From a virus, in UHGV virus genome UHGV-0379321: a stretch of 10,358 bases of DNA; one strand, 5' to 3'. Shown piece by piece: positions 2,340 through 6,878 of this stretch (positions within the stretch are counted from its first letter, which is position 1; every line of letters begins with the position of its first letter). The translations under genes and the position numbers were made by a program. Under the pieces are notes generated by a model, which searched no databases, had not been told where the DNA came from, and was given only the letters and a program-made list of their open reading frames with translations.

Positions 2340-2832
2340 TTTAATACCTCGCAAATTCGCCGAAACATTCATCCGCTTTATTTGCATATACTTTATGAGC
2401 TTCCTTTGGGTCATCGTAAAACCCAAGATTAACTTTCCTCTTGTTGATTACGATTTGCGCCCTCCATTTTCTTGATTTCTTATCCCATGAAACGCCTTTA
2501 TATCCTGATTTGTTATTTGCCTTTTTGTTTACGTTTTGGATGTTTTGAGATCGAGTTGCCAATCTAAGATTTGCTATACGATTGTCATCCCTAACGAGAT
2601 TTATGTGGTCGATATCACTTTTTGGTAGACTGCCATTCATATAGAGCCACGCCAGCCTGTGTGCCTTATAAAGTTTTCCATCGACTTTTATTACCCAGTA
2701 GCCTTCGCTACTCTTATGCCCTGCGATATCCCCAGCATTCATTCTCTGGCATTTCTTTACTTTCCATGTGAATTTCCCTGTTAACTCATCGTAGAGAAGG
2801 ACTTCTTTAAGTCTCTGCTGAGTTATTTGATT
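2262..2832 (-). mobile_element. About 570-bp homing-endonuclease insertion inside ninB (between NinB codons about 32 and 33)
   Basis: Sequence homologous to lambda ninB stops after ...CCAACCAAACCAATC (around 2833) and resumes at ...ATCATTGTCGAG... (around 2262); the intervening DNA encodes the HNH-AP2 domain plus 78 nt that supply a new NinB start. Confidence 0.65.
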
Positions 2833-2928
2833 GATTGGTTTGGTTGGGTCTGGAATGATTTGCTGTACTGCGTGAATAGCGTTCTGCTGATGGATGTGGC
2901 TTCTTAGTTCAAACGTTAGTTTCCTCAT
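2341..2928 (-). CDS. HNH homing endonuclease with C-terminal AP2 DNA-binding domain, fused in frame to the first 32 codons of ninB
   Basis: Residues 1-32 (MRKLTFELRSHIHQQNAIHAVQQIIPDPTKPI) match the lambda NinB N-terminus. The rest carries an HNH motif (DIDHINLVRDDNRIANLRLATRSQN) and an AP2-like segment (SGYKGVSWDKKSRKWRAQIVINKRKVNLGFYDDPKEAHKVY). GGAG RBS before ATG 2926-2928. Confidence 0.85.
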   Translation of the reverse strand: MRKLTFELRSHIHQQNAIHAVQQIIPDPTKPINQITQQRLKEVLLYDELTGKFTWKVKKCQRMNAGDIAGHKSSEGYWVIKVDGKLYKAHRLAWLYMNGSLPKSDIDHINLVRDDNRIANLRLATRSQNIQNVNKKANNKSGYKGVSWDKKSRKWRAQIVINKRKVNLGFYDDPKEAHKVYANKADECFGEFARY

Positions 2929-3540: not shown

Positions 3541-5934
3541 TCATACGTCAGCCCCTTGTGCATATCGTCTGCCACGCGCAGCAGGTGCATTTGATGCTGT
3601 GCAAATCTGTCTGGCTTCATCCTGGTCACATGCAACAAAGTGTCCGTTACAGAACCGCTGGTAAACCGTACCAAGTGAGCCAAAACGGTTTTTCGTCACG
3701 ATGATTTCAGCAAATGGCGCGGCGCTACTGTTCTCGTCATATACCGCTTCCCGATAGAGCATGATGATTGAGTCTGCGTCCTGCTCAATGCTTCCTGAAT
3801 CACGCAAATCTGCGTTTGTCGGGCGTTTGTTTGGTCGCTTCTCAACATCGCGAGAAAGCTGACTTAGGGAGATAACAGGCGTTTTCAGGTCTTTCGCCAT
3901 CGCCTTCAGGCTTCCGGAGATGTGAGCAATTGCGAGGTCGTTGCGGTCTGCTTTCGGCTTCTCAATCAGGCCAAGATAATCCGCCATGATGAGTGACAGG
4001 TTTGGATTTTCCTGTTTGTGTCGTTCTGCGATTGAGCGTATTTCTTCGACCGATAACCGCGAGGCATCGACTACCCATACATCCAAATCCGCAAGCTGAC
4101 TCATGCCGTTAGCAACGCGCGCCCAGCCTTCGTCATCCATCGCTGCAGGATTTCGCAGTACGCTAACCGACATCCTCCCGGCGTTGGCAATACTTCGCTC
4201 TGCAATCTGCAATGCGCTCATTTCCATTGAGAAAATCAATACTCCGCGCCGGACGTCAGAACCAGGAATAACACGGCTTGCAACGCCTTCGGCAATCTTC
4301 AGCGCCAGTTCCGTATTGTGCGTAACGATGTAATCCGTTGTCACATAGAGATGGCTAGGATGGCTTACCATGATGCAGAGACACTCTTCTGGCTCAACAA
4401 CTTCAACCGATTTGATACCCACACCAAGGTCGCCAAGCCTGTTAATCCCGAGATTTTTGCGTAAACGTGGTGAGTGAATTTGCTCTATCAAAGATGATGG
4501 CAACTTCATGCTGACCATGTGTGCATCAAGTCCGTCATGCTTCTCTCCTTTGTACGTGTAAACTATTCCCGTCCTGCTGGATTCTTTGGCGGTTCCACCT
4601 AAAGATCTAGCAAGCCTTACTAATCCTTTAGCTAATTTCTGACTGGATGAACTAAAGCGGATGCATCCGGACTTCTCAACCCAGCCATCTGTCTCGAGAA
4701 GGCCAGTTAAAACACCGGTACGTATTTCTTTGCTAGCACTAAAAATTTCTGCTGGGATTTCCTTCTCGGACGCACCTTTCCCGATCACCCCAATGCCACG
4801 TAGTTTGTCCAATAGTGGGTTCTTCTGGCCTTTTTGGTTGCTTATCAAATAATCATTCTCTCCTACCTTAACCAGTCGCAATGGTGCAATTGCATCACTC
4901 ATGCGGCTCAGGACATATTCTTCCGAGTTGGTGAATTTGATGCCTTTTATCAACGAACCGTCACCAAGTAGAGCACCAATAACCCAACCATCAAGGGAAA
5001 TATTTTTACCAAAGTCTCCGGTCAAGGATGGCACTCTTATTCTTCCCTGATAACGTGTTTTTTGTAGCATCCCAGCCAGCGCATCAGTATCAACAACGCG
5101 TTTACCAGTAAATCTTGATGATGAAATTTCCCATAAGTGGTTGTCGGCACATTTCACGCTACGTCCGTCTTCAAAGGTGACTAAATATGTGAATTTCTTC
5201 CCTTGTGGGAAGACGCCAATTACCTCCGAAGGAAGCCCGTCTATTGACGCGATGCGATCGCCAATTTTGACTTCTCCGTGAGTAGTCCAGGTGCCATCTG
5301 CAAGTAAAATCCCTTCGCTTAGCGCCATTGCTTTCCCCATACCAGGACGAGCAGCGATTATCACCAGGTCTTCCGCGTTCATCCCTCCGGTGATGGCGTC
5401 AAGTTCTTCGATTCCGGTCTTCAGGGTATCTGACTCTTCTCCGTTCCTCAGGCGCCTGTCAAGCGTGTCAGTGTAGTCAGTGATGATTTCCCCTAACCGT
5501 ACAGGTTTAACCTCGTCACGGGGCTTTCTGATGGCTGAGAGACGCTTTACAAGCTCGTCCATCGCCTGACTCGATGTATCGATGGTTCCGTTCTGAATTG
5601 GTTCACGCATTTCATCCATGATTTCCAGCACCAGACGGCGGTGATAGTTATCCGCGACCATTCCGGCATATCCCTTCAGGTTTGCGGCACTCGGGCAGTT
5701 TTTGCTGGTCATCAGGATTGACGTGAAATGCTCCTCTCCGCACGCCTCGGCAACCATCAGCGCGTCGATTAGGTTTCTGTTTCGCGCCTGCTTGCGGATA
5801 ACCTCGAAGGCTTTCCGGTAGAGCGGAATTGAAAACGCTTCCGGCTCCAGCGTTGCCAGAACGTCACTGGCAGTTGGTGTTAATCCACCAATCAGCAGAC
5901 CACCGATAACGCTCGCTTCGATATCCTGTCTCAT
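3541..5934 (-). CDS. Replicative DnaB-family helicase (P22 gene 12-type) interrupted by an intein; 797-aa precursor, 458-aa predicted spliced product
   Basis: DnaB N-terminal domain ([14 protein letters not shown]), Walker A split as ...[10 protein letters not shown] | intein | [10 protein letters not shown]..., DnaB motif [15 protein letters not shown]. Start ATG overlaps the O stop (ATGA). Confidence 0.9.
4315..5331 (-). mobile_element. Intein (339 aa) with LAGLIDADG homing-endonuclease domain, inserted between Lys and Thr of the helicase P-loop; class-3-like
   Basis: Starts with Ala after GMGK, ends in HN followed by +1 Thr. Two LAGLIDADG-type motifs ([15 protein letters not shown] and [15 protein letters not shown]). 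Block-B-like CADNHLW with Trp, a Cys in the F-block region (EECLCIMV) and Thr in VTHN fit the WCT pattern of class 3 inteins. Removing it restores GMGKTELAL. Confidence 0.8.
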
Positions 5935-6878
5935 GCAATCCCCCTGTCTGCAAACTTCCCTTCCCGAACTCCCGTTAACGAGTCTTCCCTCAGCAGGTAA
6001 TCAAAATCTGCCGTCCAGCCCGTGTCGTTGTCTCCGAAGTAAAACGGCTTGGCCTGATGTACAAACGCCCTGACATACGCTCTGAAACCGTCCACGTTTG
6101 GCGTTTTCAGTTGCGGGATGATTTTCTTCAGGCGGCGTTTGCGTTTCTCGTTGACCGCAACAGCGTGTGGCAGTCTGTCACCAACTTCGGTGTTGTAGGC
6201 GTTCAGGAAGGATTCGTAGTCGATGCGTTCTGCCTTGCGACGTTCAGGTTTAACCTGCCCATCGCCTCCCCCATTGGGGGGTAGGGGGGTATTATTTATA
6301 TTCTTGTTAATACCTTCTTGTTCATGATGTGCGGTTGTTTGTGCGGCTTCATGTGCGCTTTCATGTGCGGCATGTACGCTGAATGCCGCGCCATTACTGG
6401 CTTCATCATGTGCGGCATCATGTGCGGTTGTTTGTGCGGCTTCATGTGCGGGTGAATTGTCCATTTTTTGAGCATATTCATGGTAATTTGTGATGGTTAT
6501 CACACGACCTTTTTGCTTCTCCCCATCAATGGAGATCATCCCCTCTTTCACAAAAACCTGAAGCATCCGCTCAACCTGATCACGGCTTGCCGGCTTGCCA
6601 TGCCTGTCGCATAACTGAAGACCTAAATCAGCTGCTGTCACAACCAGTTGACCGGGTTGCAGATGCCATTCATGACCTTTGAAATTCGCTTTGTATGGCT
6701 TTCTGGCAGCATTCAGGAGAAGGTTTTCCCACAGGGTGCGAAGATAAACATCTTTCGCCCATGACTGTTTCAGAATGCTCCGGTACAACGGAATGTAACC
6801 AGTTTTCTGGTTCTCCATCCTGTTGCTCCTGCGCTCGTGTGCGGCGATGAAATCGTAGATTTTTGCTGTATTGCTCAT
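5931..6878 (-). CDS. O: Replication initiator, lambda O-like N-terminus, with internal origin
   Basis: N-terminus [10 protein letters not shown] resembles lambda O (MTNTAKILNF). Central low-complexity His/Ala-rich linker is encoded by the repeat array; C-terminal domain differs from lambda O, consistent with pairing to a DnaB-type helicase. ATG 6876-6878. Confidence 0.8.
6327..6451. repeat. Candidate replication origin iterons (about 9 copies of ATGTGCGG-like units in two blocks) inside the O gene
   Basis: Units (A/T)TGTGCG(G/C) at 6327, 6339, 6351, 6363, 6372, 6408, 6420, 6432, 6444; a 36-bp block at 6323-6358 is repeated almost exactly at 6417-6452. An AT-rich stretch and the palindrome CCCCCA-T-TGGGGG lie just downstream (6272-6320), as in the lambda ori layout. 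Confidence 0.55.

Follow-up and report, generated by a model that had tools for sequence, protein, structure and literature searches.

The virus genome UHGV-0379321, a stretch of 10,358 nucleotides called the window here, contains the immunity, replication and nin region of a lambdoid prophage. A DnaB-type replicative helicase is encoded at positions 3541..5934 of its minus strand by an open reading frame of 797 codons, the product of which is an 87.0-kDa precursor with 339 additional residues inside its Walker A loop. The insert is very probably a full-length class 3 intein, in which a LAGLIDADG endonuclease is nested in a splicing (HINT) domain, located at P-loop site b of a lambdoid P22-type DnaB helicase, and both protein splicing and homing are proposed for it. 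The N-extein (residues 1–201, 22.1 kDa; 5332..5934, minus strand) comprises the DnaB N-terminal domain, a linker and the first half of the Walker A motif, and ends with GMGK (residues 198–201; 5332..5343). It is followed by the intein (residues 202–540, 36.8 kDa; 4315..5331, minus strand) and the C-extein (residues 541–797 and the stop codon, 28.1 kDa; 3541..4314, minus strand), which contains the rest of the DnaB_C ATPase domain. The +1 residue is the Walker A threonine (codon ACG; 4312..4314, minus strand), the proposed acceptor nucleophile. The exteins have the domain composition of the DnaB family, with a DnaB N-terminal domain (PF00772, E 8.4e-13) and a RecA-type DnaB_C ATPase domain containing Walker A (PF03796, E 3.7e-71), the Pfam match of which is split around the insert. 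The models TIGR00665 and TIGR03600 also match the helicase, with scores that are under their cut-offs because of the insert. The guanine-plus-cytosine content of the intein is 45.6%, and that of the exteins is 52–53%. The helicase protein of the window is identical to one on a metagenome contig in ENA; no full-length match to the whole window was found among complete Escherichia coli genomes, the best coverage being 69%.

The insert begins with AMALSEG and ends with YIVTHN, after which the helicase continues in frame with TELALK. Because Lys differs from Asn and Ala differs from Thr at the junctions, the boundary of the insert is unambiguous and cannot be shifted. Alternative splice boundaries that would provide a Cys or Ser at position 1 are impossible, since the junction residues differ on the two sides. 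Removal of the insert results in a protein of 458 residues with a restored GMGKT. A natural intein-less allele of 458 residues (L003) is identical to the exteins at 454 of 458 positions, and its alignment to the precursor contains a single gap, which corresponds exactly to residues 202–540. The empty DNA site in this allele reads ...GGTATGGGGAAA|ACCGAACTGGCG..., and the intein-less sequence at the site is ...GGTATGGGGAAAACCGAACTGGCG.... The original prediction had positioned the insert exactly between the Lys and Thr of the Walker A motif and had anticipated that its removal would give a 458-residue helicase with an intact P-loop. The comparison to helicases without the insert, which had been suggested as a check, reproduces both the coordinates and the size.

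The two extein flanks were joined into a 600-nucleotide query for the empty site, which is contiguous at 95–98% identity in about 669 of 5426 complete E. coli genomes, where the gene is annotated as a "replicative DNA helicase". DNA of the insert occurs in 24–30 of the same genomes and in 51 phage records, which belong to 48 Stx2a-converting phages, two further Stx2 phages, and phage TL-2011a. An in-frame insert in a conserved host protein, missing from close homologues and restoring the host motif upon removal, has the defining properties of an intein. The notion that the 339-residue segment is a stable accessory domain, and that the helicase functions as a 797-residue protein, has next to no probability. 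Apart from splicing being deduced rather than seen, nothing speaks in its favor. The segment separates Lys from Thr within the Walker A loop, and it is missing from near-identical helicases. Homologous segments are present in PhoH, terminase, methylase, and primase-helicase proteins, always with the same splice-junction residues, and the fold of the segment, as identified by Foldseek on a predicted model, is that of HINT plus LAGLIDADG. The distribution of the segment, with empty alleles such as L003 in about 669 genomes, rules out an accessory domain, and the earlier view of the insert as an intein rather than a conserved domain holds.

Class 3 inteins are defined by the absence of a nucleophile at position 1 and by Trp at B12, Cys at F4, and Thr at G5 (together WCT), in addition to the universal His at B10 (PMC3196547). 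The intein of the window contains the full signature. Its N-terminal splicing half (intein residues 1–100; 5032..5331, minus strand) starts with Ala1 (codon GCA; 5329..5331, minus strand) instead of Cys, Ser, or Thr. The block B segment with ADNHLW (5125..5166, minus strand) includes His65-Leu66-Trp67 (5131..5139), so that the Trp of B12 is two residues past the His of B10. The C-terminal splicing half (intein residues 301–339; 4315..4431, minus strand) contains block F with ECLCIMV (4339..4386, minus strand), where the proposed nucleophile Cys319 (4375..4377) occupies F4, and block G with the sequence DYIVTHN (4315..4335, minus strand). The last three residues, Thr337-His338-Asn339 (4315..4323), provide the Thr of G5 ahead of the penultimate His, and are followed by Thr+1. 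Blocks A, B, F, and G, His65, the His338-Asn339 pair, and the nucleophilic Thr+1 are those expected of a HINT domain.

The blocks were assigned not by inspection but from phmmer alignments of the splicing halves to solved structures. His65 and Trp67 align on His65 and Trp67 of the Mycobacterium smegmatis intein DnaBi1 (6bs8) and with those of MchDnaB1. The counterparts of Cys319 are the catalytic Cys118 in M. smegmatis DnaBi1 (6bs8), the equivalent Cys in M. chimaera DnaB-1 (6rix), and the D107C substitution engineered into gp41-1_WCT (6riz); in a BLASTP alignment, the Cys of the mycobacteriophage Catera gp206 intein is also in register. All the features from which a class 3 intein had been predicted, namely the initial Ala, the His and Trp of ADNHLW, the F-block Cys, and the VTHN end followed by Thr, are present, and the pattern is complete. 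The WCT assignment is refined in one respect: the T is Thr337 at block G position 5, within VTHN, and not the +1 Thr, although both are present. The class 2 (KlbA-type) route is ruled out, because the WCT residues are present and the +1 residue is Thr and not Cys (definitions in PMC3196547). Besides Cys319, the splicing domain contains Cys61 at block B position 6 (5149..5151) and Cys317 (4381..4383), the latter forming a CxC motif with Cys319 in block F (ECxCI). The block B Cys and the block F CxC recur in many relatives of the clade but not in mycobacterial class 3 DnaB inteins, and this arrangement could be relevant to redox or metal sensitivity.

A search of 5.8 billion proteins identified 51 relatives of the intein. 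The nearest ones are inserted at the same GK|...|T point of other DnaB-type helicases; their inteins are 65–71% identical to that of the window, but their exteins only 31–37%. Further relatives are located in PhoH (at two different sites), the large terminase, an IstB-like ATPase, and a DNA methylase. In almost all of these relatives, position 1 is Ala, Gly, or Ser, an H-x-W motif is present, F4 is Cys, and the THN end precedes a Thr or Ser. The intein may belong to the monophyletic class 3 clade, as it is homologous over its entire length to the Catera gp206 intein, and most of 29 relatives have the WCT residues. At least one of the latter (P0045) lacks them, however, and the best sequence match of the splicing domain in the PDB is the class 1 intein gp41-1. 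The Catera gp206 intein is likewise full-length with a LAGLIDADG domain, and aligns end to end (BLASTP, 28% identity, E 2e-28) with the His-x-Trp motif, block F Cys, and THN|T in register. It differs in that it starts with Ser, belongs to an actinobacteriophage, and interrupts an unrelated protein, which in phage Rizal carries the annotation of an exonuclease. A passage of PMC3196547 that cites Tori and Perler 2011 gives this intein as one that splices efficiently as class 3.

In phage databases, tblastn found matches in 602 of 50,697 records. The cluster of proteins at 90% identity that includes the 797-residue helicase has 1046 members, some of them from Salmonella enterica, and its commonest variant occurs on 770 contigs. 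The cluster also lists 217-residue "DUF6246 family" proteins of Salmonella and Citrobacter, which are probably a clustering artefact. None of the NCBIfam models recognizes the intein, the only matches being weak, sub-threshold ones to intein-containing RecA, RpoA'', and Tes models. In a 284-residue protein (P0005; L015–L017, gene 4001–4855), whose gene is the direct neighbor of an N-peptide gene, the C-terminal portion of a related intein (69% identity) is joined to DnaB_C; the protein is apparently what remains, in truncated form, of an intein-bearing helicase from a deleted prophage.

The P-loop position known as DnaB site b is the home of the M. smegmatis class 3 mini-intein DnaBi1, for which the P-loop Ser is the +1 residue (PMC6195587). 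The site-b class 3 DnaB inteins of mycobacteria (M. smegmatis DnaBi1, 6bs8; M. leprae DnaB; M. chimaera DnaB-1, 6rix and 6riy) share with the intein of the window the DnaB host family, the P-loop insertion point, and the use of the Walker A Ser or Thr as the +1 residue. They also have Ala1, His65, and Trp67 with identical numbering, the block F Cys, and the THN end. By contrast, the mycobacterial inteins are mini-inteins of 139–145 residues without an endonuclease, whereas that of the window has 339 residues and an intact LAGLIDADG domain. The mycobacterial hosts are essential chromosomal DnaB proteins of actinobacteria with Ser+1, unlike the helicase of an Enterobacteriaceae prophage with Thr+1. 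The sequence identity is low (phmmer E about 1e-7), and Asp62 and Cys48 of the M. smegmatis intein correspond to Ala62 and Thr48.

Among solved structures, the best sequence match of the splicing domain is gp41-1 from a cyanophage-like helicase (6qaz, E 3.7e-8) and its WCT variant (6riz, E 4.5e-11). Unlike the intein of the window, gp41-1 is a class 1 mini-intein with Cys1, Phe at B12, and Asp at F4, and has no endonuclease. An AlphaFold2 model of the intein, built on an alignment of 30 sequences, has a mean predicted local distance difference test score of 94.6 and a predicted template modeling (TM) score of 0.92. In a Foldseek comparison of the model to the PDB, the yeast VMA1 intein PI-SceI is the top match (E 1.4e-18, query TM-score 0.77), followed by other endonuclease-containing inteins. 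The class 3 DnaB mini-inteins match with target TM-scores of 0.84–0.87; TliVMA and the hedgehog HINT domain are also among the matches, as are the LAGLIDADG enzymes I-DmoI and I-Tsp061I for the central domain. PI-SceI has the same layout of HINT and LAGLIDADG domains and is the best match for the whole model. However, it is a class 1 intein with a Cys1 nucleophile, is 454 residues long with an extra DNA-recognition region, originates from a eukaryotic V-ATPase, and is only about 16% identical.

The LAGLIDADG homing-endonuclease domain spans approximately intein residues 101–300 (4432..5031, minus strand), and two Pfam models match inside the insert, LAGLIDADG_3 with 26.8 bits (cut-off 22.5) and Hom_end with 23.7 bits (cut-off 21.1). 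Motif 1, VIGALLGDG (4957..4983, minus strand), contains Asp124, and motif 2, LTGLLETDG (4684..4710, minus strand), contains Asp215. In each motif the acidic residue is followed by Gly, and together with the matching alpha-beta-beta-alpha-beta-beta-alpha fold this is what distinguishes a two-motif LAGLIDADG endonuclease. The active site of PI-SceI includes residues D218, D326, and K301. In a HMMER alignment to the 454-residue PI-SceI chain, Asp215 pairs with D326, and Lys190 of the sequence EKEIP (4762..4764, minus strand) pairs with K301. In the family alignment, Lys190, Asp215, and Gly216 are invariant, and Asp124 and Gly125 are retained in at least 90% of the sequences. The two motifs had been described as having intact acidic residues, and Asp124 and Asp215 prove to be among the most conserved positions of the family. 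The endonuclease core is the most conserved part of the intein family, a pattern that points to selection on cleavage activity. Two residues of the domain differ between copies. Intein residue 112 (residue 313 of the precursor) is Ser in the window and Pro in most other copies, and Ser313 is shared only with L001; Pro is the family consensus at this position, which is the P of IDPY ahead of motif 1. Intein residue 241 (residue 442 of the precursor) is Ala only in the copy of the window and Val in most others.

By analogy with characterized class 3 inteins, the 87-kDa precursor would be unable to bind or hydrolyze adenosine triphosphate, because 339 residues split GMGK|T. Cys319 at F4, assisted by His65, Trp67, and Thr337, would attack the Lys201-Ala202 bond to form a branched thioester on block F, and the N-extein would then pass to the hydroxyl of Thr+1, the Walker A threonine. 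Cyclization of Asn339 would free the 36.8-kDa intein, and an O-to-N acyl shift would restore GMGKT in a 50.2-kDa helicase identical to the natural intein-less alleles. Judged from its sequence, it is highly probable that the intein splices, and if it does so, the class 3 route is very likely by comparison with its characterized counterparts.

The database annotation of the gene gives a different impression. RefSeq/PGAP splits it into two or three "incomplete" pseudogene fragments, or reports a protein of 453 or 595 residues that starts inside the intein, even where the gene has 797 intact codons (L001, 4227–6620; L002, 2227–4620; L004, 3727–6120; L013, 227–2620). This is a systematic mis-annotation of intein-containing genes. 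In GenBank and UniRef the product is named "DNA helicase", "DNA 5'-3' helicase", or "replication protein", and in TL-2011a it is a hypothetical protein. If the pseudogene calls are taken at face value, the intein is genuine but decaying or dead for splicing, the helicase is effectively a pseudogene, and replication relies on the helicase of another prophage, on host functions, or does not take place. The intein-less alleles that other lambdoid prophages provide in many E. coli strains agree with this scenario, which is nevertheless very unlikely. The fragments reported by PGAP are artefacts, as all 797 codons are open in each of the five genomic copies examined, which differ in prophage context, upstream initiator genes, and downstream genes. 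The commonest variant of the helicase occurs on as many as 770 contigs, and among the 51 phage records with the gene are 48 of named Stx2a-converting phages.

A phage that produces particles has to replicate, and in a replication module of this kind the helicase is phage-encoded. The Stx2a prophage of the strain named WG5::TT12A carries the helicase gene upstream of stx2a, at a distance of about 8 kb, which argues against a pseudogene, as the phages of TT12A are inducible. DNase-protected copies of TT12A-specific prophages increase after treatment with mitomycin C (PMC11052207).

Several points have to be set against a functional intein. The lysogenization of WG5 is deduced only from the name of the strain and the presence of the Stx2a prophage; the TT12A genome paper (PMC11052207) does not mention WG5, the helicase, or an intein, and a literature search on TT12A and WG5 returned nothing. 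The WCT residues alone do not guarantee splicing. The engineered gp41-1 with C1A/F65W/D107C undergoes mostly C-terminal cleavage and no productive splicing (PMC7664689), which shows that these residues are insufficient. The class-3-like intein Arth_1007 is a dead pseudogene (PMC3196547) and sets a precedent for decay; however, it lacks the block B His and block F Cys, whereas all the catalytic positions are intact in the intein of the window. Furthermore, block B position 7 is Ala, with an Asp one residue later, where M. smegmatis DnaBi1 has Asp62 in a DxxH motif. Splicing of the intein remains by far the preferred explanation.

The diversity of five intein-bearing and six intein-less alleles bears on the mobility of the intein. 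Among the intein-bearing alleles, the N-extein and C-extein have a nucleotide diversity of 2.89% and 1.40%, respectively, compared to 0.49% for the intein. Compared to the intein-less alleles, their extein diversity is similar in the N-extein and about half in the C-extein. The low diversity of the intein relative to the exteins indicates that the allelic diversity of its host gene is older than the intein. Only one nucleotide distinguishes the two groups throughout: the +1 Thr codon is ACG with the intein (4312..4314 in the window) and ACC without it (empty sites of L003 and L008–L012), a synonymous difference at its third base. A 40-mer of the empty site with ACG is found in 0 of the 5426 E. 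coli genomes, and the same 40-mer with ACC in 554. Since ACG never occurs at an empty site, it is a marker that moves together with the intein, of which no precise loss is evident.

The helicase regions of the Stx2a phage of WG5::TT12A (L004) and of the O157:H7 strain 7409 (L012), both of the Stx-phage type, represent one backbone that occurs naturally with the intein (L004) and without it (L012). The two have zero mismatches from −999 to −214 and beyond +649 relative to the junction, except for short gaps and a 274-nucleotide insertion with a 270-nucleotide open reading frame just downstream of the helicase gene. All 24 mismatches are within −213 to +648, and from −72 to +648 the L004 sequence matches the O121-type intein-bearing allele at 20 of 24 informative sites. 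The conversion-like patch around the intein fits homing with flanking co-conversion and suggests a recent horizontal spread. In the proposed homing, the freed intein would act as a LAGLIDADG endonuclease. Where lambdoid phages or prophages reside in one cell, it would cut those alleles that lack the intein at ...GGTATGGGGAAA|ACCGAACTGGCG..., and the intein would spread when the break is repaired from the copy that contains it.

The endonuclease is probably active, but the strength of this statement is limited because ordinary recombination among lambdoid phages could give the same picture. The mosaic structure and low diversity could result from such recombination rather than from endonuclease-driven homing. 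In addition, the intein is present in only about 4% of the alleles of this helicase in complete E. coli genomes, whereas a very active endonuclease might have spread further. It is conceivable, if rather unlikely, that the intein splices with an endonuclease that has lost its activity, and that its distribution reflects vertical descent and mosaic recombination. The 24–30 genomes with the intein compared to about 669 with empty sites fit this explanation, as does the notorious mosaicism of lambdoid replication modules. The tract in the TT12A phage is long and asymmetric (from about −72 or −213 to +648 or beyond) and may include the neighboring 270-nucleotide open reading frame, as ordinary recombination would produce. 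By contrast, the catalytic Asp pair and the Lys equivalent to PI-SceI K301 are intact and invariant or nearly so throughout the family, which speaks for selection on the endonuclease. The exteins are 3–6 times as diverse as the intein that they flank, some alleles have recombination breakpoints no more than about 21 nucleotides from the junction, and the +1 ACG marker accompanies the intein without ever appearing at an empty site. An endonuclease that retains its activity is therefore favored. The suggestion that the element is still mobile was sound with respect to the motif residues; mobility itself is backed indirectly, by the low diversity of the intein and the conversion-like mosaic.

An intein in protein P of phage phi24B, with an orthologue in phage Min27, has been reported by Smith et al. 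2012, whose study did not test its function experimentally (PMC3430580). Outside its own cluster, the nearest relative of the intein among phage records is that of the primase/helicase of phiXuzhou21-Stx2a, with 49.9% identity over 339 residues. The P inteins of the Shiga toxin (Stx) phages phi24B, Min27, and phiXuzhou21-Stx2a have the same architecture, with A1, HLW, ECLCIMV, and THN|T. Like the intein of the window, that of phiXuzhou21-Stx2a (residues 372–713, between GHGK and TEVV) is positioned after the Walker A Lys of a replication helicase. However, protein P is a 968-residue TOPRIM and gp4-type helicase and not a DnaB-type one, the DNA of the inteins is 56% identical, and 26 of 60 positions agree in the flanking target DNA. 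The DNA identity and the mismatched flanks therefore indicate separate insertions of related inteins in two replication helicases of Stx phages.

No description of an intein in a DnaB-type helicase of this kind was found in the full-text literature searched, where the phi24B P-protein intein (PMC3430580) was the only one encountered, and none of the source names calls the protein an intein. Whether the intein had been catalogued was left open originally. It has not been found under any intein name, but inteins of its kind, including the 50%-identical relative from Stx phages, have already been described (PMC3430580). Class 3 inteins of phage origin at the P-loops of replication proteins are already known, and one that occupies the identical DnaB site has been studied well. 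The intein would come as no surprise to a specialist, and the principle of inteins is unchanged.

The genes of the window are arranged in the order CI-like S24 repressor, Cro-like helix-turn-helix protein, CII, O-like initiator, DnaB-type helicase, two small open reading frames, an HNH_3/AP2 open reading frame, NinB, NinF, NinG, and antiterminator Q. The ATG of the helicase gene overlaps the stop codon of the O-like replication gene (ATGA). The latter gene (5931..6878, minus strand) contains a cluster of direct repeats at 6321–6463 with a 12-nucleotide spacing and units like TTCATGTGCGG and TTGTTTGTGCGG, which encode a repeated HEAAQTTAH-type peptide of the initiator. The repeats look like origin iterons inside the initiator gene, as in phage lambda. 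Between the helicase gene and ninB, an open reading frame of 195 codons (2341..2928, minus strand) encodes HNH_3 (E 9e-17) and AP2 domains, and looks like a free-standing homing endonuclease. Other intein-bearing prophages have a different, 612-nucleotide HNH endonuclease gene at the equivalent place. The intein is thus not the only selfish element of this replication module.

Should the intein function as proposed, lambdoid prophages of E. coli and Salmonella, including Stx2a phages of outbreak lineages (O121:H19 and some O157:H7), would need protein splicing to obtain their own helicase. The amplification of the toxin gene after induction depends on phage replication, and splicing would therefore be a testable point of control or inhibition. 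The mis-annotation of the gene affects prophage-completeness calls and pan-genome counts of the strains that carry it. Enterobacteria would offer a native class 3 intein that has kept its endonuclease for homing, within a species that also contains hundreds of natural alleles with an empty target. Both class 3 chemistry and homing between prophages of one cell could then be studied conveniently in a host with easy genetics. As a natural WCT intein with a splicing domain that, among solved structures, is most similar in sequence to the class 1 gp41-1, it could also be used to test whether class 3 diverged from class 1 phage inteins. A more speculative and rather improbable extension is that the intein acts as a conditional switch and not just as a parasite. 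Oxidants or zinc would reversibly block the maturation of the helicase, as demonstrated for the M. smegmatis class 3 DnaB intein at the same P-loop site, and would gate the replication of Stx phages. Such a block is conceivable because splicing would start at the thiol of Cys319, with Cys317 and Cys61 nearby in the sequence. If this were the case, the amplification of Stx2a phages of O121:H19 and some O157:H7 strains, and with it the dosage of the Shiga toxin gene, would be coupled to the induced cell's redox or metal state.

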